This document shows, piece after piece, positions 2,144 through 54,993 of a stretch of 54,993 nt of DNA. The notes beneath the pieces are model-generated. The model was not told the DNA's origin and ran no database searches. It worked only from the letters and a program-made list of their open reading frames with translations. Both the position numbers and the translations under genes were made by a program. The stretch spans positions 1 to 54,993 of IMG/VR virus record IMGVR_UViG_2923302340_000009; one strand, written 5' to 3'. Positions within the stretch are counted from its first letter, which is position 1; each line of letters opens with the position of its first letter. This stretch comes from a virus. Taxonomy: Duplodnaviria; Heunggongvirae; Uroviricota; Caudoviricetes.

Positions 2144-4515
2144 TAGATTGACTCCCCCACCTGAGCATCAGTCAATGCCTTGTGCCATATTCTGAAATTC
2201 CTGACATGACCAAATAAATGACGTAACCCGGCTGTAGTCTGGCCTCCAATACGGATAATTGCGGTGTTCTGAATACAGGACCATGTGGTTTTTGTTTCGC
2301 TGGATATATGCCCGTTACTTACTGAGCACGTAGACTGCTCTGACTTTACACGCATCCCCATAACCATTTTTTCAAGCGATGCGTTTTCGTTTACCCGTCT
2401 GTTAGCTCCTCCAATATCGCAATAAGGAAATCCGTCGTAATCTGTTGAACGACCGAAGCCAAGAATAATAGCCGCTCCGGTTTGATGACCGCCGGTATCA
2501 AAAACACGTGGCGCTGCATTTGGCGTTTTATACCAGTTCTTATGTACCTCACAAAGAACCGTAAAAGGAAGATTATAAAGATTATTCTTAATTGGAACTG
2601 TAACTATATCGCTTGCGCGGGTCGCCGCCGTCGCTCCTGATATAATAAAAGATGATACACAAGGCCCATCTTCTACTTGTGGGGTGGCCAGATAAATATA
2701 GTCACCAGATACGGTTGCCCCGCTCTGCTTAGGAGAATACTGTATCTGAGAGCCTATTTTTAACTCCCCATCAATTGCCTGAATTGTTGCCTCTGCAAAA
2801 ATCCATCCGGTAGCTTCGTCCTTTCTGACTCTCGCTGTAATTCTTGAGGCAGCACCGCCTGTCATATTAATTTCAAGCGTTTGTGTATCAATATACGCAT
2901 CACCAAGAAAAGTTGTTGCGCTACCGTCATATTTATCAAACCGGATACGCAACCTTACCTGCAGTTCTGTTTTAAAACGACATGAGGTTGTCACGTGTTT
3001 ATTATCGCCTGAGACATCAACTGACTTTGTTGCAGCAATTGATGCCATATTAATGGCTGAGGTTTGCCCAATCAGAGAATCGTTGCAGACAAACTTTCCA
3101 TAGGTAAAACCAAAATTATCCGTCCCTGTTTCGGGCACATCCATATTTGACGATCGCCCCCAACTGGCAGGGCTTTCCGAATTGAGCATGTAGTTTGTTC
3201 TTTGCCCCTCAATAAGCAGGCCATCACGTTCAAATCGTGGCTCGTCAATGGCAGCCTCTGTCAGCACACCAGATTTGTTAATATAGGTTGCTTTCGATGC
3301 ACGTTTAAACTTAACAATCTTGTCGCCAGGCATCGTTATTTCATCGTCACCAATAACAATTTTTTTATATGATGGCGAAAAGCCCGTAATCATATCCAGC
3401 GAATCGTTAAATGGTATCCACACATCAGGCAGCGGCTGTAAGACATATTTATACGGCTCCGCAGCCTGGCTTGCGTACTCTCTGGCTGCATCTTCGCTTG
3501 CTTTAGCTGCCGTCTGGCTTGCTGCCGATGCTTTCGCTGAGTTCGCAGCCGCTGTTTCGCTCACCTTTGCGTTGGTTTCACTGGTTTTTGCTGCTTTTTG
3601 ACTGTTAGCTGATGCAGTGGCAGAAGCAGCCGCCGCGCTTGCAGAACTGGCTGCGGCACTCTCGCTTTGGGCCGCTGCATCCTGACTGCTTTTCGCCGCA
3701 GTTTCACTGGCTTTGGCATTCGTTTCGCTGGTCTTCGCTGCCGTCTGGCTGGACTTTGCGTTAGTTTCACTCGTCTTCGCAGCTTTCTGGCTGTTAGCCG
3801 CAGCAGTTGCTGATCCAGCTGCTGAAGTCGCAGAACCGGCTGCCGCGCTCTCGCTTTGGGCTGCTGCAACCTGGCTGTTTTTTGCTGCAGTTTCACTGGC
3901 TTTAGCATTCGTTTCGCTGGTCTTCGCTGCCGTCTGGCTGGACTTTGCGTTGGTTTCGCTCGTCTTTGCGGCTGTCTCGCTATTTTTCGCGTTGGTTTCT
4001 GATTTTTTAGCTGCTGTTGCGGAGTTTGCCGATGCAGTCTGCGAGGCCGCTGCCGCCTGTGCGCTGTTAGCTGCATTCGTTTCTGAGGTTTTCGCCGCGT
4101 TCTTCGATGATGCCGCTGCAGTTTCGGATTTCTTTGCCGCCGCTGCGCTCTGAGAGGCGGCTTCAGCGTTGCGTGCCGCTTCTTCCACCATTTCCTCAAA
4201 ACGACGCAATGCCTCCGGCATGACATCATCCTCCGTCATGGCACCGAGAAAATCATTCAGCGTACCGGGTTGAGAATCTTCATACACGGTGATGGTCCCG
4301 GCATGTGACGGCGGGAATCCCTCCACCAACAGAATAACGCTGTACTGACCGTACTCAACGTCCATGCTGTAACGCCCGGCTTCATCCGGATTTTCTGAGG
4401 CCAGCGTGTTCACCACCACCGTGGTACTGTTACGTTTTGCTTTCAGCTGGATTGTGCAGTTCTGTACCGGTTTTCCTGTGCCGTCTTTCAGTACACCTGA
4501 AATCTTTACTGCCAT
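2143..4515 (-). CDS. stf: side tail fibre protein Stf (lambda-like N-terminus, Ala/Ser/Thr-rich repeats, distinct C-terminal domain)
   Basis: N-terminus MAVKISGVLKDGTGKPVQNCTIQLKA matches lambda Stf; track ORF starts at GTG 4521, ATG at 4515 matches lambda start. Confidence 0.85.
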   Translation of the reverse strand: MAVKISGVLKDGTGKPVQNCTIQLKAKRNSTTVVVNTLASENPDEAGRYSMDVEYGQYSVILLVEGFPPSHAGTITVYEDSQPGTLNDFLGAMTEDDVMPEALRRFEEMVEEAARNAEAASQSAAAAKKSETAAASSKNAAKTSETNAANSAQAAAASQTASANSATAAKKSETNAKNSETAAKTSETNAKSSQTAAKTSETNAKASETAAKNSQVAAAQSESAAAGSATSAAGSATAAANSQKAAKTSETNAKSSQTAAKTSETNAKASETAAKSSQDAAAQSESAAASSASAAAASATASANSQKAAKTSETNAKVSETAAANSAKASAASQTAAKASEDAAREYASQAAEPYKYVLQPLPDVWIPFNDSLDMITGFSPSYKKIVIGDDEITMPGDKIVKFKRASKATYINKSGVLTEAAIDEPRFERDGLLIEGQRTNYMLNSESPASWGRSSNMDVPETGTDNFGFTYGKFVCNDSLIGQTSAINMASIAATKSVDVSGDNKHVTTSCRFKTELQVRLRIRFDKYDGSATTFLGDAYIDTQTLEINMTGGAASRITARVRKDEATGWIFAEATIQAIDGELKIGSQIQYSPKQSGATVSGDYIYLATPQVEDGPCVSSFIISGATAATRASDIVTVPIKNNLYNLPFTVLCEVHKNWYKTPNAAPRVFDTGGHQTGAAIILGFGRSTDYDGFPYCDIGGANRRVNENASLEKMVMGMRVKSEQSTCSVSNGHISSETKTTWSCIQNTAIIRIGGQTTAGLRHLFGHVRNFRIWHKALTDAQVGESI

Positions 4516-41050: not shown

Positions 41051-41740
41051 TCAATCCAGTTTTGCAATACTTTGCTGTGAAAATGTCGTCTTTTGTTTTG
41101 AACGTGTTCTCGTTACAAGCAATAAAGCTTCGCTATCAAGCTGTAGAAAAATGTGCTTCATTGCAACCCAGCGTTCAGTAAATGTCTCAGACCAGTTTTT
41201 TGATGTCACTCCCACCAGTGATGCCAGCTCCTGGTATTCATAGGTCTTACGCCCTGCCAGCTCATTCTTCACATCCTGTGCCGCCAGCCAGATCAACTTC
41301 TTCAAACGTTCCAGTGTCTTACCTGCAATTTTCCTGGTACCCAACAGAGTCTTAAACTCGCTCCATACCCACTGCGTTATGGTGACCTGATGTTCCCAGC
41401 GAACACTTTCGCTGTAACTCCACAGCAACCACGCTTTCTGATGTTCTTCGAGAGACAGAACCGCGCGGCGCCATGAAGATGTTGAGAACTCAACCTGGCT
41501 GACCAGTGCAATGGATGAACCTTTTGCGTACGACTGCTTACCGGAAATCGGCGGATTATCCAGCGTAATCATCTTGCCCGTTACCTCATCCAGAATGCGC
41601 GGCTTCTTTCGTTTATATGTACCAGTATCAAATTGTGCATGCTCCAGCCAGGCTTCAAGCTGGCCTTTCGTTGCTCCGCTCAAATCAGCAGTAGCCACAA
41701 TGAGTTGCTCGCGGACATACTGTAAATATTGGGTATTCAT
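41051..41740 (-). CDS. putative late-gene antiterminator Q-like protein
   Basis: 229 aa at the Q position between rusA and lysis cassette; start at internal ATG with SD AAGGAG; assignment by synteny. Confidence 0.55.
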   Translation of the reverse strand: MNTQYLQYVREQLIVATADLSGATKGQLEAWLEHAQFDTGTYKRKKPRILDEVTGKMITLDNPPISGKQSYAKGSSIALVSQVEFSTSSWRRAVLSLEEHQKAWLLWSYSESVRWEHQVTITQWVWSEFKTLLGTRKIAGKTLERLKKLIWLAAQDVKNELAGRKTYEYQELASLVGVTSKNWSETFTERWVAMKHIFLQLDSEALLLVTRTRSKQKTTFSQQSIAKLD

Positions 41741-41873
41741 GCGGCAGCTCCTTTCAGTGTTTTGGCGTAATTCTTCAGTATTCGGTAATCGGTCAAAACA
41801 GAACCGGGGAAACGATATAAGCGCAGACGCCACCAGCGGTGGCGAAGAAGTTCTGCCATATAAAACTCAAACA

Positions 41874-43328: not shown

Positions 43329-44639
43329 CTATGGATTAGAGAGTGAATCTGGATGTGGTATTTCAGCCATGACCTCCTCTGCATCACAGTTGTCGATAAA
43401 AAAGTATAAAGTTGAGTCAACAATTTTTAAACGCCTGGTACCTTGATCATAATCGAATAATGGCGGAACGATATTCTGATTTGTTTGAAGTATAGGCAAT
43501 CGCTTCAGTGTCCCTGTTACATCAGAAGTTCTGACGTTATCAGGATGAGTATGTATTTCTTTAATAAGTTCCTGTAGAGTCTTTCTCTCAATCCCATCCT
43601 TGAGCTCAGAATAAGTTCTACTTAACAGAACTTGAACTAAATAATACTGAAGATACAAAGCCACAGCCTCTTCACTTGGCCTGCGACTTCGACTCCCTGC
43701 GGCAATTGACTCAAGACTACGGACATGTCTTGACGAATAATCTGCAACCTTAACGTCAATTGCTCTTTGTAGAACGGCCATATCACTCAAATAAACTACT
43801 TCTTGTTGGACCATTCGTATTCCTGACAATTCACAAAGTTGCTTAAGAAGCTCTTGCACTACTGCAACACTTCCATGGGCCTCTTCAAATATACGCTCTT
43901 TAATTTGCTCTGAAATAGATATATTTAAACACTGCTCGCCAACTGTAGCGATTCTTGAAAAGTCACCTTTATCCCATGGCTCAACAGGAACCTCAGCCAT
44001 ACGGTCCTGTAAGTCGCCATTAAACTGAATAAGACGATTATTTTCTCTCCATACTCCGAGTATGATAAATCTAATACCCATTTCTTCAAATGTACGAAGA
44101 TCAAATGCCAACTGTCCTTGAACTTCAACAGAGAGATAATGAAAGTTTTCGAGAACGAAGAACTTATCCTTCCCGCCAACATTAATCAATAATTCTCCTA
44201 CATCTTGTGCCGCCGTCAAGTTGAACTCAATCGGCCTAGATTTTGTTTCTGTATTTTTGGATATCGTCCCTTCAACCCCCGCCTCTACTTCAGTTTTTGC
44301 TAAAAATGGCAGGATGGCAGAAAAAGTGCTTTTTAAAGACGCTGAAGCCTCCTTAGAGTTACCTGTTGTTCTCTCGGTAATAATTTCCACTCCAAAGTGA
44401 CGTAAAAATGTACGATAGATATCTTCCGCAGAATTGGTGGGACCACAATGATATGTAACCCTGCTGTTTTCATCTAAATGGCGCTGAAGTAAGGCTGTTT
44501 TCCCTTGTTTTGATGAGCCATAAATCACGATCTGCTTCGTCGTTGCAAGTGCATCAGCAAGTGCCTGATCGACCTTTTCACGTTCAATATAGCTGGCTAC
44601 CGGATCTCTTGATACTCCGAATACATTATTTAGATGCAT
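43329..44639 (-). CDS. P-loop NTPase (AAA-like ATPase) of unknown function; nin-region moron
   Basis: Walker A GSSKQGKT, Walker B-like FFVLENF; AT-rich gene flanked by AT-rich DNA. Confidence 0.6.
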   Translation of the reverse strand: MHLNNVFGVSRDPVASYIEREKVDQALADALATTKQIVIYGSSKQGKTALLQRHLDENSRVTYHCGPTNSAEDIYRTFLRHFGVEIITERTTGNSKEASASLKSTFSAILPFLAKTEVEAGVEGTISKNTETKSRPIEFNLTAAQDVGELLINVGGKDKFFVLENFHYLSVEVQGQLAFDLRTFEEMGIRFIILGVWRENNRLIQFNGDLQDRMAEVPVEPWDKGDFSRIATVGEQCLNISISEQIKERIFEEAHGSVAVVQELLKQLCELSGIRMVQQEVVYLSDMAVLQRAIDVKVADYSSRHVRSLESIAAGSRSRRPSEEAVALYLQYYLVQVLLSRTYSELKDGIERKTLQELIKEIHTHPDNVRTSDVTGTLKRLPILQTNQNIVPPLFDYDQGTRRLKIVDSTLYFFIDNCDAEEVMAEIPHPDSLSNP

Positions 44640-45028: not shown

Positions 45029-45361
45029 TTAATGTAGTGCACTTCGTGACAACAAATTAATCACCAACACACCGGCACAAATCAACATCATGCCTATAAT
45101 GGCTGGCAGGTCCAGCCGTTGGCCGAAAAATCCCCATGACAGTAAGCTAATCAGGACAATCCCGACTCCTGACCAGATAGCATAAGCAATCCCTGTAGGA
45201 ATATAAGCCAGCGTCTGAGCTAATAACCAGAATGATGCACAGTAACAAATAATTGTACCAACAGATGGCCATAACCGTGTAAAACCTTCTGAAAACTTCA
45301 TTAAGGTTGTACCAATGACCTCTGCAAGTATTGCACCACCAAGATAAATATAAGGGTTCAT
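45029..45361 (-). CDS. emrE: small multidrug resistance efflux protein EmrE
   Basis: 110 aa from MNPYIYLGGAILAEVIGTT; near-identical to E. coli EmrE. Confidence 0.92.
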   Translation of the reverse strand: MNPYIYLGGAILAEVIGTTLMKFSEGFTRLWPSVGTIICYCASFWLLAQTLAYIPTGIAYAIWSGVGIVLISLLSWGFFGQRLDLPAIIGMMLICAGVLVINLLSRSALH

Positions 45362-45428
45362 AGCATATTCTTTCCTGTTCAAACTGGAGAGAATTGTACT
45401 ACAGTTTGAACTCAACTCACCTGTTTCA

Positions 45429-45731
45429 TCATTGTGTTCCCATTGATGTTCTTTTATATACCCTCAATACCCGTTTCATCGCGGCACTCTGGCGACACTC
45501 CTTAAAAATCAGATTCGTGCTCACCTTTCCTTCCCGTTCTTCTCTGGTAGCGAACCGGTAATACACCGTTCGCCAGACCTTACCATCAACGACCAGGATT
45601 CCTGCCCGCGCCATTTTAGCCGCAGCCTGATTTATGCTGGTTACGGTTGCGCCTGTTACCGCGGCAACGTCCTGTGCACAGAAGCTCTTATGCGTCCCCA
45701 GGTAATGAATAATTGCCTCTTTGCCCGTCAT
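45429..45731 (-). CDS. ren: Ren protein
   Basis: Matches lambda Ren (MTGKEAIIHYLGTH...). Confidence 0.85.
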   Translation of the reverse strand: MTGKEAIIHYLGTHKSFCAQDVAAVTGATVTSINQAAAKMARAGILVVDGKVWRTVYYRFATREEREGKVSTNLIFKECRQSAAMKRVLRVYKRTSMGTQ

Positions 45732-46429
45732 ACACTTGCTCCTTTCAGTCCGAACTTAGCTTTAATTTCTGCGATCTTCGCCAGAGCCTGTGCACGATTT
45801 AGAGGTCTACCGCCCATAACAGGAAGTTGTTTTACTGGTTCAGGTATCGTCTCACCACGGTTAATTCGCGCTGTCATACAGGTCAGTTCATCGGCAGCCT
45901 TGCGCCGTAATTCCGCGTCAGTCAGCGCATTGGCCCGCATGTTCTGGTACAAGTTGGTAACCAACCAGTAATGCGCGTTCGATTTCCACGGATAAGACTC
46001 TGCATCCGGATACAGGCCACGCTTCCGGCAATACTCGTAAACCATATCAACCAGCTCGCTGACGTTTGGCAGCCCGGCGTTAACAGATGCTTCTTCCCGG
46101 CACCAGGCGACAAACTGCCCGGGTGATGGCAGGAATGGTCGATTCTGCCGACGGGCTACGCGCATTCCAGCGTTAACCTGTTCCATTGTGGTGATCCCGT
46201 TTTCCCGGAAAGCCAGAACCCACTGGCAGCGGATTTCGTTCAGTTCATTCTGGTCACGGTTAGCCAGGCTCGCCGGGAAAGTTGCCAGTAACTGGCTGAA
46301 CACACCGTTGATGATCTGCGCTACCTGCTGTACCTGTGGCTTTTCGTCGTACTGTTCCGGCATGTTGTTGGCGATCCGGCGCATCTGCTCACAGTCAAAG
46401 TTAACCATCTGTGCGGCGATGTTTTTCAT
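45728..46429 (-). CDS. P: replication protein P (helicase loader)
   Basis: 233 aa, matches lambda P. Confidence 0.95.
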   Translation of the reverse strand: MKNIAAQMVNFDCEQMRRIANNMPEQYDEKPQVQQVAQIINGVFSQLLATFPASLANRDQNELNEIRCQWVLAFRENGITTMEQVNAGMRVARRQNRPFLPSPGQFVAWCREEASVNAGLPNVSELVDMVYEYCRKRGLYPDAESYPWKSNAHYWLVTNLYQNMRANALTDAELRRKAADELTCMTARINRGETIPEPVKQLPVMGGRPLNRAQALAKIAEIKAKFGLKGASV

Positions 46430-47355
46430 AGCTCCACCCCGTAAATCCAGTCAGTGTTCGTCAGGTCGAGTTTTGGTTTGCCGGCTGTCACGCCAGCCTG
46501 TTGCTTGTTTCGGTTGATTTCGAGCTGGGTCCACTTGTCGCGGAGTTTGGCCGGACTTAGCACGTTACCGGACCAGAAGTTGTCCTGGCATGCCCAGCGG
46601 AACAGCACGCACATGTCGCGGTGGTTACGTCCGTCACGTTCACGCATCAGGCGGATATCGTTAGCCCACCCTGCAAAATTCGGTTTTCTGGCTGATGGCG
46701 CGATGGTCTTCACCATGTCAAACATCCACTCTGCGGCGGTCAGGTCTTCTGCTGTCCCCCACTTGCTGCCGCTCTGAATTGCAGCATCCGGTTTCACCAC
46801 AGGAAGATCGTTTTCTGGTTGGTCAGAGGATTCGCCAGAATTCTCGGACGAAAAAGGTTTTATATTGTCTTTTGTTAGTTTGTCTTTTGTGTTTACCTGA
46901 TTCGGGTAAACGCCTTTACCTGATTTGGGTAAACTTTTTTTACCTGATTCAGGTAAATTTACCTCTTTCAGGTAAACTTTATTTTTCTTACCTGATTCGG
47001 GTAATGTTGACCATTCACTGACCACATTATTAATGCCGGTATTCCGCCCGCTCTGAATAAAAATCCCACGCTTTACCAGAACACTTTTTGCAGCAGAACA
47101 CTTGTGCGGCAATATCCCGGTTAATTCGGAAAGTTGCTCGTTGCTCACCCAATCCAGTTTTTTATTAAAGCCATATGTTTTGCGCATGACAGCCAGAAAG
47201 ACCAGAAGCTGGTGCTGTGTTAATCCGGCCAGCATCACAGCTTCCAGCAACTCATTTGCAATGCGCGTATAACCATCATCGAGATCTGCCACGCGCGGCT
47301 CCTTTTGTGCCGCATCCGGCACTGGAAAATTGAATATCTCAGCAGTGTTTGCCAT
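46426..47355 (-). CDS. O: replication initiator O
   Basis: C-terminal half matches lambda O, N-terminal domain divergent; start MANTAEIF with SD GGGAGG. Confidence 0.9.
   Translation of the reverse strand: MANTAEIFNFPVPDAAQKEPRVADLDDGYTRIANELLEAVMLAGLTQHQLLVFLAVMRKTYGFNKKLDWVSNEQLSELTGILPHKCSAAKSVLVKRGIFIQSGRNTGINNVVSEWSTLPESGKKNKVYLKEVNLPESGKKSLPKSGKGVYPNQVNTKDKLTKDNIKPFSSENSGESSDQPENDLPVVKPDAAIQSGSKWGTAEDLTAAEWMFDMVKTIAPSARKPNFAGWANDIRLMRERDGRNHRDMCVLFRWACQDNFWSGNVLSPAKLRDKWTQLEINRNKQQAGVTAGKPKLDLTNTDWIYGVEL
46893..47004. repeat. ori iterons inside O gene (about 5 copies of ttacctgattcgggtaa-like palindromic repeat)
   Basis: Repeats tacctgattcgggtaaa, tacctgatttgggtaaa, tacctgattcaggtaaa, cctctttcaggtaaa, tacctgattcgggtaat within the O coding region. 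Confidence 0.75.
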
Positions 47356-47441
47356 AATTCCTCCCGCAATGAGTGTGTTACGATTTGCACCTGAAAGTCG
47401 GTTCTGTTCCAGCAGACCGGCTTTCGCCATTTCTGAACCTG

Positions 47442-47981
47442 TCATATCGCCCCCAGCATGGTAGTAACCATCGCCATCAATGGACCAGCCAGATCTGGGT
47501 CCACACGAAACATCGACACAATACCTTCACTAATTTCCTTCAGTTTCTGGTGGCGTGGTGCGTTGAGAATGACAGCCTGTTTTGCCTCACTGAGTTCCTT
47601 TTCCATTTCAGCCAACCTAGCCATGAAGCTATCCTGCTCAACCAGGTAACCGCGATATTCCAGCGGTAGTACCGCCAGAATTGCCGGGGTCAGTTCACGC
47701 ACGTTATTTCGGTATTTTTCAGAATCGAATTTGTTATCGAGGAAGCGGAACAGCTTCTGGCGTGCACGGCTGACATCATCAGGGAAATCGATGGTGCCGC
47801 CGCCCTGCTCCCGATACTCATTCACAATGAGTGTGGCAACGACATCCTGATTATCTACAGCCGACCAGGCGCGGACGGCATCACGGATTTTTTCGTGGCC
47901 TGGCACCTGTTTTGTTTGAGAACGATTTATCACCGCAGTCGGGCTAAATCCGCTAGTCTGTTGGTATGTAAGTGGTTGCAT
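47442..47981 (-). CDS. YdaT-like protein (cII position)
   Basis: 179 aa; EYREQGGG...LTPAILAVLPLEYRGYL pattern resembles Rac-prophage YdaT family. Confidence 0.5.
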   Translation of the reverse strand: MQPLTYQQTSGFSPTAVINRSQTKQVPGHEKIRDAVRAWSAVDNQDVVATLIVNEYREQGGGTIDFPDDVSRARQKLFRFLDNKFDSEKYRNNVRELTPAILAVLPLEYRGYLVEQDSFMARLAEMEKELSEAKQAVILNAPRHQKLKEISEGIVSMFRVDPDLAGPLMAMVTTMLGAI

Positions 47982-48050
47982 AATTGACTCCTTTAGTTTG
48001 AATTGACTGTTAAGTTGATTGCTTATTGTTAAAGAGCGTGAAATGGAAAT

Positions 48051-48281
48051 TTAAGCTGCGTTCTTTTCGGTGTGTGGAAACAACTTCGGAAGATCCGGGC
48101 GAATCTGGTATGCCTTCACTACTCCACCAGTAGCCGTAACAATGCTGCCGACATGTTCAGGGGATACCTTTGCTTTGTTGTGAAGCCACTTATAGACGGC
48201 CTGCTGTGAAACTTCGCAAGCAGCGCCCAGTTTCTTTTGTGAACCAACGATATTGATCGCTGTTTTGATAGCTGGGTTCAT
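48051..48281 (-). CDS. Cro/YdaS-like HTH regulator
   Basis: 76-aa HTH protein divergent from repressor; SD GGAGG. Confidence 0.65.
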   Translation of the reverse strand: MNPAIKTAINIVGSQKKLGAACEVSQQAVYKWLHNKAKVSPEHVGSIVTATGGVVKAYQIRPDLPKLFPHTEKNAA

Positions 48282-48385
48282 AACAACCTCCGTGGTTAAT
48301 TTGAATCAAGATTAAAACTATGGTTGTTTTTAGTCAACAACCATTTTCGCTTGATGGAATAAAACCTTGGTTGTACATTTGGACT
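48282..48385. promoter_or_regulatory. rightward-operator-like region between cro-like and cI-like genes with AACAACCAT half-sites
   Basis: ATGGTTGTT-N7-AACAACCAT perfect inverted repeat plus AACCTTGGTTGT; divergent gene starts on both sides. Confidence 0.6.
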
Positions 48386-49075
48386 ATGAAAACAACACTC
48401 TCAGAAAGACTTAAAGAAGCCAGATTAGCGCGAGGCCTTACACAAAAGGCGCTTGGGGATTTGGTCGGGGTTAGCCAGGCTGCTATTCAGAAAATCGAAA
48501 CAGGGAAAGCTAATCAAACAACTAAAATCGTGGAGATCGCGAACGCTTTGGGTGTGCGCGCAGAATGGTTATCTTCTGGCGTTGGAAATATGTCAGACAG
48601 TACAGTGCAACCAATACAATCAACTGTCAGCCATTCCAAATACTTCAAGATTGACGTTCTTGATATAGAAGTCAGTGCTGGGCCGGGAGTCATCAACCGT
48701 GAGTTTGTAGAAGTTCTACGCTCGGTTGAGTACTCGTTTGACGATGCTCGTCACATGTTCGATGGTAGGAAGGCGGAAAATATCCGCATCATTAACGTGC
48801 GTGGTGACAGCATGTCAGGAACGATCGAACCAGGTGATCTGCTGTTCGTTGATATCACAGTTAAATCTTTCGACGGTGATGGTATCTATGCGTTTCTGTA
48901 CGACGACACAGCCCATGTAAAGCGCCTGCAAATGATGAAGGATAAGCTGCTGGTCATCTCTGATAACAAAAGCTACTCACCGTGGGACCCGATCGAGAAA
49001 GACGAGATGAACCGGGTGTTCATCTTCGGTAAGGTTATTGGGAGCATGCCGCAGACATATAGGAAGCATGGGTAG
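48386..49075 (+). CDS. CI-like repressor (HTH + LexA/S24 peptidase domain)
   Basis: HTH TQKALGDLVGVSQAAIQKIE; S24-like C-terminal domain with Ser (GDSMSG) and Lys (HVKRL); start at internal ATG 48386. Confidence 0.8.
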   Translation: MKTTLSERLKEARLARGLTQKALGDLVGVSQAAIQKIETGKANQTTKIVEIANALGVRAEWLSSGVGNMSDSTVQPIQSTVSHSKYFKIDVLDIEVSAGPGVINREFVEVLRSVEYSFDDARHMFDGRKAENIRIINVRGDSMSGTIEPGDLLFVDITVKSFDGDGIYAFLYDDTAHVKRLQMMKDKLLVISDNKSYSPWDPIEKDEMNRVFIFGKVIGSMPQTYRKHG

Positions 49076-49195
49076 TACCAATTAAAAATTATCAACTGGG
49101 CATTGTGCTCATTCAGTAAAGAACTAATTCCTATCTTTGCTCTAGGTAGTAATATTAAGCCACCGCAATAATATCTTTACCTAACGGCGTAAGAA

Positions 49196-49222
49196 TCCCG
49201 GTCACCGTGCCGGGTTTTCTTT
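49196..49222 (+). terminator. rho-independent terminator downstream of cI-like gene
   Basis: cccgg-tcaccgtg-ccggg hairpin followed by TTTTCTTTT. Confidence 0.5.
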
Positions 49223-49364
49223 TGCCCTCCCCTCATCACACACACCGTTAAAAAAACCACCATAACCTCGCTTCAGTTATCGCTATGCGATTCAAGTCAC
49301 AAAATAAATCCATCCTAAATACAACCAGTTATATCTAAAACAACCAATAAAACAACTTTTGTTG

Positions 49365-49393
49365 TTGACGATAAAACAACCATGGTTTTAAAT
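49365..49393 (+). promoter_or_regulatory. pL-like promoter with operator palindrome in spacer
   Basis: -35 TTGACG, 17-nt spacer containing aaccatggtt, -10 TTAAAT; further AACAACCA half-site upstream. Confidence 0.5.
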
Positions 49394-49586
49394 AAGTTCA
49401 TCGCAACAACACAACGATACGGCAACTACCTGATTCACCGTTGCGATGACCGCTTAGATCCGCAGTTTGAATTTCAGCAGGCTTCGGGGAGTGCGAGGGG
49501 TGAAACGGACGCGTGAACGTCGGTGTGACCAGCTGAAATTAACTCAACATTTCATACCTTAGTCGCTTCAACGAGGCGGCTTAGTT

Positions 49587-49877
49587 ATGACAACCGGCGG
49601 CCATCCACCGCCTGAATACGCGCAGAAGTCTCTATATGTTCAGCAGCCCAGCTTACGGGCAGGAGTTTTTATGGTTCATCAACATTATGGAACGCAGACC
49701 GTTAATCGAGGTGCGGTCATGCCAGGAATGCTGGTCAAACACAAAGATGGTACCTGGACTGCATCAGCTAATTTACGCGGACGGCTTTATCTGCATCGCG
49801 GCATCGAGCGCACTTATACCCGTGATTTGCTCGTGGAAGTTTTTCTCGACGGACGCGGTAACGGCCTGAATCACTAA
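49587..49877 (+). CDS. hypothetical protein occupying the N/early-left position
   Basis: 96-aa ORF, SD-like GAGGCGG; not Arg-rich N-like; lambda homology resumes just after its stop. Confidence 0.45.
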
Positions 49878-49952
49878 TCCCCTTTCCTGTTTTCCTAATC
49901 AGCCTGGCATTTCGCGGGCGATATTTTCACAGCCATTTTCAGGAGGTCAGCC

Positions 49953-50249
49953 ATGAACGCTTATTACATTCAGGATCGTCTTGAGGCTCAGAGCTGGGCG
50001 CGTCACTACCAGCAGATCGCCCGTGAAGAGAAAGAGGCAGAACTGGCAGACGACATGGAAAAAGGCCTGCCCCAGCACCTGTTTGAATCGCTATGCATCG
50101 ATCATTTGCAACGCCACGGGGCCAGCAAAAAAGCCATTACCCGTGCGTTTGATGACGATGTTGAGTTTCAGGAGCGCATGGCAGAACACATCCAGTACAT
50201 GGTTGAAACCATTGCTCACCACCAGGTTGATATTGATTCAGAGGTATAA
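49953..50249 (+). CDS. gam: Gam (RecBCD inhibitor, short form)
   Basis: Matches lambda Gam from [21 protein letters not shown]. Confidence 0.95.
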
Positions 50250-53352: not shown

Positions 53353-53631
53353 ATGTTCAGAATCATTTTTCCTAACACCTGGTACGTCGACCACCACGGC
53401 ACTCCCTGCAAAATCCTGCGTTCTACCCACAACAAAGTTCACTACATCCGAAAAGGCAGAACATGTATCGCCAGCATGTTCCGCTTTAATCATGACTTTG
53501 AACCTGTGAATAAAGCTGATGCAGATCGGATAGCAGAAGAGATCGAAACGGCAGAACACATTAAGAAGTTACGTGACATGCGTTCAAAAAGCAGAGGTAA
53601 CCATGGAATCATACAGCCTCACACTCGATGA
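53353..53631 (+). CDS. hypothetical protein
   Basis: 92-aa ORF upstream of xis; no family recognised. Confidence 0.4.
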   Translation: MFRIIFPNTWYVDHHGTPCKILRSTHNKVHYIRKGRTCIASMFRFNHDFEPVNKADADRIAEEIETAEHIKKLRDMRSKSRGNHGIIQPHTR

Positions 53632-53974
53632 GGCCTGTCAGTTTCTTAAGATATCCAGACCAACCGCCACCAACTGGATACGAACAGGCCGCCTACAGGC
53701 AACACGTAAAGATCCAACCAAGCCAAAATCTCCTTACCTCACAACACGGCAAGCCTGCATTGCGGCGCTTCAGTCTCCGCTGCATACTGTCCAGGTGAGC
53801 GCGGGTGATGGCATAACAGAGGAAAGAAAATGTCACTCTTCCGCAGAAATGAAATATGGTATGCCTCGTATTCGCTCCCGGGCGGGAAACGAATTAAGGA
53901 ATCTCTTGGCACAAAGGACAAGCGGCAAGCTCAGGAGTTGCACGACAAGCGAAAAGCAGAACTCTGGCGTGTAG
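53603..53974 (+). CDS. xis: excisionase-like HTH protein
   Basis: [34 protein letters not shown]; SD GAGGT; C-terminal part overlaps int by about 145 nt, so 3' extent uncertain. Confidence 0.55.
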
Positions 53975-54993
53975 AAAAGCTAGGGGATTTACCTGATGTC
54001 ACTTTTGAAGAGGCCTGCCTAAGATGGCTTGAGGAAAAAGCTGATAAAAAATCTCTCGATTCAGATAAAAGCCGGATTGAGTTCTGGCTTGAACATTTTG
54101 AGGGTATAAGGCTTAAAGATATCTCGGAGGCAAAGATTTACTCTGCTGTAAGCAGAATGCATAACAGAAAGACGAAAGAAATATGGAAACAGAAAGTTCA
54201 GGCCGCTATCAGGAAAGGTAAAGAACCGCCTGTTTATGAACCAAAGCCAGTATCAACTCAGACAAAGGCAAAGCATCTTGCCATGATAAAGGCCATTCTC
54301 CGTGCTGCAGAACGCGACTGGAAGTGGCTGGAAAAAGCGCCTGTCATCAAGATACCAGCGGTCAGAAACAAGCGAGTCAGATGGCTGGAAAAGGAGGAAG
54401 CAAAACGCCTTATTGATGAGTGCCCCGAACCACTGAAATCTGTCGTCAAGTTTGCGCTGGCAACTGGTCTGAGAAAGTCGAACATCATAAATCTGGAATG
54501 GCAACAAATCGACATGCAGCGACGAGTTGCCTGGGTGAATCCAGAAGAGAGCAAATCAAACCGCGCCATTGGTGTGGCGCTGAACGATACCGCCTGTAAA
54601 GTGTTGCGTGATCAAATAGGCAAGCATCACAAATGGGTGTTTGTACATACCAAGGCGGCTAAGCGAGCAGATGGAACATCAACGCCTGCGGTCAGGAAGA
54701 TGCGCATCGACAGCAAGACATCATGGCTATCAGCTTGTCGTCGTGCAGGAATTGAAGATTTCCGTTTCCATGACCTCAGACACACCTGGGCAAGCTGGCT
54801 GATTCAGTCAGGCGTCCCATTATCAGTGCTTCAGGAAATGGGCGGATGGGAGTCCATAGAAATGGTTCGTAGGTATGCTCACCTTGCGCCTAATCATTTG
54901 ACAGAGCATGCGAGGAAAATAGACGACATTTTTGGTGATAATGTCCCAAATATGTCCCACTCTGGAATTATGGAGGATATAAAGAAGGCGTAA
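53830..54993 (+). CDS. int: phage tyrosine integrase (DLP12 IntD-like)
   Basis: 387 aa; C-terminal catalytic motifs HDLRHTWAS...GGWES...MVRRYAHL; resembles E. coli DLP12 IntD; stop at window end. Confidence 0.9.

Follow-up and report, generated by a model that had tools for sequence, protein, structure and literature searches.

A probable phi80-type CII activator beside a YdaS-family Cro in a mosaic lambdoid immunity region, with a predicted PRE-like promoter inside the cII gene

We analysed a YdaS/YdaT-like gene pair in the immunity region of a virus of the class Caudoviricetes, using the whole 54,993-nucleotide (nt) sequence of IMG/VR record IMGVR_UViG_2923302340_000009, positions 1 to 54,993 (hereafter the window). 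In the list of open reading frames (ORFs) of the window, positions 47442 and 48281 are the exact outer ends of two neighbouring minus-strand ORFs. The first (48051-48281) encodes a 76-amino-acid protein with a YdaS-family helix-turn-helix (HTH), and the second (47442-47981) encodes a 179-amino-acid protein of the YdaT family and of the phage phi80 CII type; we refer to these genes as cro and cII. Both ORFs are far above chance, and their ATG codons are preceded by GGAGG and AAGGAG, respectively. The stop codon of cII overlaps the start codon of a lambda O-like replication initiator gene (46426-47445, minus strand; PF04492, 116 bits; PHROG 277, 2.2e-163) as ATGA, which indicates that O is translationally coupled to cII. 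A lambda-type P gene (45728-46429, minus strand), assigned by Pfam and PHROG profile searches, comes next, and ren is also among the lambda-type genes that profile searches identify on this side. On the other side, cro is the first gene of an operon divergent from a cI-like repressor gene (48386-49075, plus strand; 229 amino acids, HTH_3 and Peptidase_S24 domains), with which it shares a 104-bp OR-like control region (48282-48385) containing repeated operator-like sequences. The gene order is P-O-cII-cro with cI opposed, such that cII lies directly after the cro-like gene, before the replication genes and opposite the repressor.

Profile searches assign the 179-amino-acid protein to Pfam YdaT_toxin (PF06254) with 103.5 bits (cut-off 21), and to PHROG 163, 'CII-like transcriptional activator', with an E-value of 3.9e-67 over residues 17-179. 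The protein annotated as cII in Escherichia phage PhiR34_1 has the same sequence (100% identity), and proteins labelled 'cII' or 'CII-like activator' in ~15 other deposited coliphages, including 4A7, Lambda_4C10, Perceval and IdasGreatGrand, are 95-99% identical. Identity of the 179-amino-acid protein to phage phi80 CII is 66% over the full length, to mEp237 CII 67%, to HK225/HK639 cII 52%, and to Rac YdaT 35% over 96 residues. Crystal structures of CP-933P YdaT (8BT1 and 3C4R) are its only sequence matches in the PDB (E 0.002-0.004). The same two structures are the only significant fold matches of a monomer AlphaFold model (Foldseek probability 1.00, ~26% identity over ~120 residues, TM ~0.6 on the target); this model is all-helical with long C-terminal helices, has a mean pLDDT (predicted local distance difference test) of 63.6, and serves for family-level fold assignment only. 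The first ~27 residues are predicted by the model to be disordered. Arg79 does not vary among 29 homologues, and its aligned counterpart in Rac YdaT is Arg57, which is needed for DNA binding (Arg60 in CP-933P).

The protein has no match to the lambda CII family PF05269 at E<=0.01, and hhalign of the protein against lambda CII gave a probability of 1.8%, which together rule out lambda-CII homology. As a control, we searched with a lambda CII sequence, validated by its PF05269 score of 163.8 bits; lambda CII fell into PF05269 and PHROG 191, while the 179-amino-acid protein, phi80 CII and Rac YdaT all fell into PF06254 and PHROG 163. We conclude from these profile comparisons that the name 'CII' covers two unrelated protein families that occupy the same slot, and that the protein encoded here belongs to the phi80/YdaT family. 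A profile search for clear CII homology was the observation that the first-pass annotation had named beforehand as counting against its view of the pair; such homology was found for phi80 CII and was absent for lambda CII.

The 76-amino-acid protein matches Pfam YdaS_toxin (PF15943) with 62.2 bits (cut-off 30), with weaker matches to P22_Cro and HTH_3, and PHROG 35, 'transcriptional repressor', with an E-value of 1.5e-27. Its closest solved structures are the Cro proteins 3BD1 and 5W8Y. It is 30% identical to Rac YdaS and barely similar to the Cro protein of phi80 (gene 30). The suggestion that a YdaS/YdaT-like pair occupies the cro/cII position is thus borne out by both profiles (PF15943 and PF06254) and by the gene order, and the neighbours are as first described, with a divergent HTH_3 and Peptidase_S24 repressor and lambda-type O and P downstream.

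Phage phi80 is among the closest known systems. Its CII (JX871397/X13065; relatives in mEp237, HK225 and HK639) has 179 or 180 residues, an N-terminal extension and the same conserved C-terminal 40 residues, belongs to PF06254 and PHROG 163, and is likewise encoded between cro-like and O-like genes. It differs in its surroundings, since in phi80 the intergenic stretch from cII to gene 15 contains an oop-like M3 RNA whereas cII overlaps O here, and since the phi80 Cro is barely similar and the phi80 cI is only 24% identical to the repressor of the window. That repressor (PF00717, 67.3 bits; PF01381, 49.2 bits; PHROG 4, 8.7e-73) has no similarity to RacR, which lacks an S24 domain in Pfam. Rac YdaS/YdaT (E. 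coli K-12 b1357/b1358) shares with the pair the two Pfam families, the gene order and the DNA-binding Arg. However, Rac YdaT has 140 residues, lacks a 24-residue N-terminal extension and has a different C-terminus, and Rac carries YdaU/YdaV-type replication genes and an unrelated repressor. The earlier comparison of the whole region with the Rac prophage therefore does not hold: the repressor is unlike RacR, the replication genes are lambda O and P, and only the Cro-like and CII-like genes are Rac-related (30% and 35% identity). The absence of homology to lambda CII agrees with the first-pass annotation, and the repressor is of the cI/LexA type. Since the CII is closest to that of phi80 while Cro and cI are of other types and O and P are those of lambda, the sequence comparisons identify this as a mosaic lambdoid immunity region with a phi80-type cII, a YdaS-type cro, a cI-type repressor with its own specificity and lambda-type O/P.

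Two records of phi80 cII differ in length. In the 1988 record (X13065; locus L066, 3750-4148) the gene encodes 132 amino acids from an internal start, and in the 2012 genome record (locus L065, 2501-3043) it encodes 180. The long form is supported by conservation of the reading frame and a strong Shine-Dalgarno sequence, and its 48 additional N-terminal codons carry the conserved box and -10 element described below.

The 840-bp cro-cII segment is matched in 2222 of 5426 complete E. coli genomes (~41%), with at least 80% of its length covered in 1507 of these, and its RefSeq label is 'toxin YdaT domain-containing protein | transcriptional regulator'. This label and the Pfam name 'Bacterial toxin ydaT' invite the reading that the genes form a toxin-antitoxin or toxin-repressor pair, in which the 179-amino-acid protein would be a poison held back by the Cro-like protein or by the repressor; derepression or overexpression of Rac ydaS/ydaT is also described as lethal in work cited in PMC5917428 and PMC11879457. 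Direct tests of a relative gave another answer: the CP-933P pair showed neither toxin-antitoxin behaviour nor YdaT toxicity, and YdaT instead activated a leftward PRE-like promoter (Jurenas 2021, PMC8630535), in agreement with negative tests of homologues by Christensen-Dalsgaard 2010, as cited in PMC5917428. The toxicity of the Rac protein has been traced to YdaT activation of the host gene rcsA (Wons 2025, PMC11879457), and overproduced lambda CII is toxic too (PMC5917428). We found no match of the pair to any defence or toxin-antitoxin model in PADLOC, the family has a POU-like HTH DNA-binding fold with a conserved Arg, and the gene occupies the cII slot in plaque-forming phages. Hence, we regard a toxin pair as extremely unlikely.

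Published work on the family points elsewhere. Jobling 2018 argued from genetic context that YdaS and YdaT are the equivalents of Cro and CII (PMC5917428), and the homology of YdaT to phi80 CII was pointed out by Jurenas 2021 (PMC8630535). The structure of YdaT consists of a POU-like HTH domain and a four-helix bundle that forms a tetramer, and its footprinted site is TTGATT-N6-AATCAA (Prolic-Kalinsek 2023, PMC9986795). In Rac, YdaT protects ATGATTCATGAAAATCAA over the ydaT start, raises leftward transcription into racR 29-fold in a box-dependent manner, and no longer binds when H56A/R57A substitutions are introduced (Wons 2025, PMC11879457). The first-pass description of the function as uncertain or toxin-like is hence outdated, as these four papers (PMC5917428, PMC8630535, PMC9986795 and PMC11879457) show Cro and CII analogues and not a toxin-antitoxin pair. 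CP-933P YdaT is the best PDB match of the 179-amino-acid protein by sequence and by fold, and a functional CII analogue at a PRE-like promoter (PMC8630535, PMC9986795). It differs in belonging to a distant subfamily, in a repressor (PaaR2) that carries a toxin-antitoxin cassette, and in a box that, as seen in the closely related phage Tritos, is a perfect palindrome overlapping the ydaT start. Taking gene identities, gene order and the published family members together, we think it very likely that the pair is a Cro and a phi80-type CII lysogeny activator.

We looked for the corresponding box by comparing 62 related loci, taken from Enterobacteriaceae contigs with one genome per species, of which 57 contained complete genes that could be aligned. 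All 57 have a box at the homologous position, with scores of 7-11 out of 12 relative to TTGATT-N6-AATCAA, and in the more divergent loci the homologous box is the best site in 6.5 kb. In the window it lies at 47916-47933 (codons 17-22 of cII), where the gene strand reads GTGATA-AATCGT-TCTCAA, an imperfect inverted repeat; it scores 8 of 12 and its TGAT-N9-TCAA core is intact. Over 30 loci have this core at an identical offset within the gene, as does phi80, where the box spans +49 to +66, and in Rac it lies over the start of ydaT. The Rac box straddles the ATG because Rac YdaT lacks the N-terminal extension. Across the 57 loci the half-sites are conserved, but the spacer differs between loci (AATCGC, TACCAG, TCTCAG, TTTGAA and others), and the peptide encoded over the box varies as well (MINRAQ, MIYQNR, LISQNQ, LIFENQ and others; VINRSQ in the window). 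Third-position and synonymous entropy is lowest in the first ten codons of the 57-gene alignment, and two nucleotide blocks, +1 to +23 and +46 to +66 of cII, are conserved with a freely varying stretch between them. The conserved N-terminal peptide blocks (MINRAQ; VINRSQ here) are therefore most likely a by-product of constraint on the DNA. We infer that the box is bound by the 179-amino-acid protein.

Within the window itself the box does not stand out. Sites with at most three mismatches to TTGATT-N6-AATCAA are not enriched (30 observed, 29.7 expected), and neither is TGAT-N9-TCAA (2 observed, 2.0 expected). Since the score of the box is common and its motifs are not enriched in the window, the case for the box is one of positional homology. 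A scan of the window with the phi80-type box consensus matched only the box itself. We also considered whether the +1 to +23 block might be a second inverted-repeat box; it does not fit, and it covers both the transcript start that we predict and the start codon of cII. In the spacer between cro and cII, at 47982-48020, lie three directly repeated hexamers of the form TTGAYT (47984, 48003 and 48015, plus strand), which resemble YdaT half-sites. As CII sites, these TTGACT/TTGATT repeats (47984-48020) were not retained, as they are confined to this type of cro and lack comparative support.

We reasoned that if the protein acts as a class II activator, with the box centred at -41.5 and the promoter directed towards cI, a -10 element would be expected at +28 to +23 of the gene. 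All of the 50 distinct phi80-type sequences have a TAnnnT hexamer exactly 20 nt cI-ward of the box (in phi80 it spans +23 to +28), in the form of 12 different hexamers over 19 different tripeptides; at all other offsets such hexamers are rare. In the window this element is TAGTCT (47954-47959, plus strand), with transcription predicted to start at ~A47966. We then extended the comparison to 11 YdaT-family sequences, namely the window, phi80, HK225, Kp4865-4, Kp4882-1, Rac, Tritos, ST405-OXA48phi1.2, Chris1, pAEv1818 and pPE4. All 11 have TAnnnT 20-21 nt from the box on the repressor side, and none has it on the other side; the local frequency of TAnnnT is ~0.01 per position. Outside the phi80 type the hexamers are TATGAT in Rac, TAGTTT in the CP-933P-like phage Tritos, TAGCAT in Klebsiella phage ST405-OXA48phi1.2, TATTAT in Citrobacter phage Chris1, TAACAT in Aeromonas phage pAEv1818 and TATGCT in Actinobacillus phage pPE4. 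A composite of the strict-core box and TAnnnT is found once in the window, at the predicted PRE itself, while the looser composite of a box score of at least 8 with TAnnnT is not over-represented there (8 observed, 12.8 +/- 4.1 expected). From the conserved -10 at class II spacing, we infer that the 179-amino-acid protein activates transcription towards the repressor.

Published Rac and CP-933P data bear on the position of such a promoter. The YdaT-inducible PRE reporter fragment of CP-933P starts at the box, as judged by comparing primer F-PRE with the Tritos sequence, and this is compatible with a box-proximal promoter. In Rac, TGAT-N9-TCAA at the 5' end of ydaT is followed on the repressor side by a good -10-like TATGAT, 20 nt racR-ward of the footprinted box (locus L064, E. 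coli K-12, 2152-2157, minus strand), which suggests a box-proximal promoter distinct from the published PracR4. The Rac reporter spans the whole stretch from the box to PracR4; hence, activity of a box-proximal promoter would be scored as activation of PracR4 from ~190 bp.

Box and promoter might also be read differently, with the box serving mainly as a repressor or roadblock site through which the 179-amino-acid protein autoregulates the PR operon (cII-O-P) and does not activate a leftward promoter. The box does lie inside the transcribed cII gene, YdaT is often called a repressor in the literature (PMC9986795), and Rac YdaT also binds over the PydaST promoter (PMC11879457). However, a roadblock leaves unexplained the invariant, one-sided TAnnnT at 20-21 nt in the 11 sequences, and in Rac the expression of ydaT differed little between intact and mutated box whereas that of racR rose steeply (PMC11879457). 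We consider a primarily repressive role improbable. It has also to be asked whether the protein mainly reprogrammes host genes, in the manner of a moron, and is dispensable for the phage switch, given that Rac YdaT activates host rcsA (PMC11879457) and that the module is so widespread in E. coli. Its conserved position, its coupling to O and its association with a box and promoter of its own speak instead for a circuit internal to the phage, and in phi80 the gene was named cII. A host-directed role is possible as a side activity but unsupported as the main one, and as such we hold it to be very unlikely.

Several points weigh against activation of a promoter next to the box. In Rac, box-dependent activation has been assigned to PracR4, ~190 bp away, and not to a box-proximal start (PMC11879457). 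As many as 400 positions in 55 kb score as well as the box of the window (8 of 12). The predicted -10 is weak (3 of 6) and lacks a -35 element, although such a promoter is what would be expected to depend on an activator. On the plus strand, a transcript from the predicted start would meet terminator-like hairpins at 48158-48172 and 48320-48344 before reaching cI, the latter at the palindrome of the cro-cI control region. We detected no second box with a promoter near xis/int (53573-54993) or Q (41051-41833), so that control in the style of lambda PI and PaQ is unsupported, and the structural model of the protein is of low confidence. Weighing these points against the comparative evidence, we favour the predicted position of PRE with modest confidence. 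We are similarly inclined to accept, as somewhat probable, a family-wide class II PRE (box, 20-21 nt, TAnnnT; box centre ~-41.5) that in the phi80 type would be overprinted by the 27-codon disordered extension, its peptide motifs being in reality DNA motifs.

In our best account, the locus forms the right half of the immunity switch in what seems to be a complete lambdoid prophage. The 76-amino-acid YdaS-family protein is Cro, the product of the first gene of the PR operon, and would act on OR operators shared with the divergent cI-like repressor. The 179-amino-acid protein is the CII of the phage and would tetramerise through its C-terminal helical bundle, by homology with Rac and CP-933P YdaT, and its POU-like HTH (recognition helix ~R72-N83, key residue Arg79) would bind the inverted repeat at 47916-47933 within its own 5' coding region. 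Once bound, with the box centre at about -41.5 in a class II arrangement, it would recruit RNA polymerase to a weak promoter, the box and the -10 (TAGTCT) being 20 nt apart. The transcript from ~47966 would run antisense over the ribosome-binding region and start of cII and over all of cro, and on into cI (48386); transcription of cI by this route would set up repression after infection. The first 27 codons would encode a disordered N-terminal extension that overprints the promoter.

The logic would be that of lambda PRE, executed by an unrelated protein that reads an inverted repeat instead of a direct repeat. The lambda side of this comparison is general background, covered in part by PMC9986795. 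Lambda CII likewise comes after cro, is an HTH activator that works as a tetramer, and has its site and the -35 of PRE in the 5' end of its own gene; the PRE transcript is antisense to cro and serves cI. Lambda CII is, however, non-homologous (it is also absent from the fold matches), has 97 amino acids and not 179, and recognises TTGC-N6-TTGC, a direct repeat, where the YdaT family recognises an inverted one.

The control region between cro and cI contains a palindrome with 9-bp arms at 48320-48344. A 19-nt operator-like sequence at 48312-48330 recurs at 49373-49391 with 95% complementarity, and a further copy lies at 48357-48374. We read a candidate PR from the sequence as TTGACT (48337-48332), an 18-nt spacer and TTTAAT (48313-48308) on the minus strand, and a candidate PRM as TTGATG (48351-48356), a 17-nt spacer and TACATT (48374-48379) on the plus strand; both are below the threshold of the promoter scan. 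Beyond cI, an OL-like operator cluster (49315-49393) consists of repeats of the AAAACAACCA motif shared with OR (repeat families D1, D5, I1, I4 and I19), and contains a candidate PL, also read from the sequence, as TTGACG (49365-49370), a 17-nt spacer and TTAAAT (49388-49393) on the plus strand. As consensus readings, these three promoter candidates are plausible. The candidate PRM would start exactly at the ATG at 48386, which suggests that cI is leaderless and encodes 229 amino acids, as in lambda and CP-933P. In deposited relatives the annotated cI has 251 amino acids and begins at 48320, within the operator palindrome.

A boxA-like sequence, CGCTCTTTAACAA, read from the sequence, lies at 48026-48038 (minus strand) in the 69-nt spacer between cro and cII. 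We take it as a putative boxA by its likeness to the boxA of nut and rrn sites. The motif also follows unrelated cro genes in two of the related loci (L006 and L009). We found no nutR boxB hairpin after CGCTCTTTAACAA, and the spacer is unstructured (-5 kcal/mol, z +0.2). Many of the phi80-type loci with unrelated cro genes (L003-L056) carry a GC-rich hairpin, GCCGC(T/C)TAAC(C)GGCGGC, that includes the cro stop codon and is followed by CTAACCACGAAAGGGAAAGCA. This hairpin lies ~15-45 nt upstream of the cII start (e.g. 2955-2985 in L005), and the window lacks it, having the boxA-like spacer instead; the hairpin could be a tR1/nut-like element or a processing site. Rfam gave no match to any family, either across the full window or, at E<=1, within 46800-50000. 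An oop-like antisense RNA was rejected, as cII overlaps O and the sole plus-strand promoter-like match there (47330-47358) is at chance level with no terminator after it.

The window appears to be a complete lambdoid prophage, with genes for a Q-like antiterminator, RusA, NinB, kil, gam, bet, exo, xis and int. With complete OR and OL operator sets, and with kil-gam-bet-exo-xis-int and Q all present, the switch lies in a seemingly intact phage. Between the candidate PL (49365-49393) and the kil-like gene (49587-49877; PHROG 294, 1.2e-38) there is no N-like ORF. The PL leader contains two long inverted repeats (49398-49449 and 49470-49540), but it folds no more stably than shuffled sequence (z -0.36) and has no Rfam match. 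On the other side of the immunity region, a minus-strand gene directly after ren (45029-45415) encodes an EmrE/QacE-like small multidrug resistance (SMR) transporter (PHROG 1395, 7.3e-57); emrE in the K-12 prophage DLP12 has the same arrangement. In the accessory slot between ninB and this transporter gene, a minus-strand ORF (43329-44639) encodes a 436-amino-acid AAA-type ATPase-like protein that matches the PADLOC candidate defence system PDC-S59 over nearly its full length (E 1.5e-72, 243 bits) and PHROG 6841, of unknown function. The equivalent slot of phage PhiR34_1 holds ybcK/ybcL/ybcM-type genes.

The pair is genuine but unremarkable: a phi80-type CII and a YdaS-type Cro within a mosaic lambdoid prophage of a common kind. 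The function and structure of the family are published, deposited phage genomes already label the gene cII, and the pair raises no new question about phage biology. All that is mildly new here is the comparative case for a conserved class II PRE overprinted by N-terminal codons. If this is correct, promoter overprinting accounts for the conserved look of a disordered N-terminal tail, and the published activation from ~190 bp in Rac may reflect an unrecognised proximal promoter. For annotation, a gene matched in ~41% of complete E. coli genomes carries a toxin label in RefSeq while the evidence points to a CII-type lysogeny activator. For the family, the layout of box, 20-21 nt and TAnnnT predicts where PRE would start in phages of the phi80 and Rac types.

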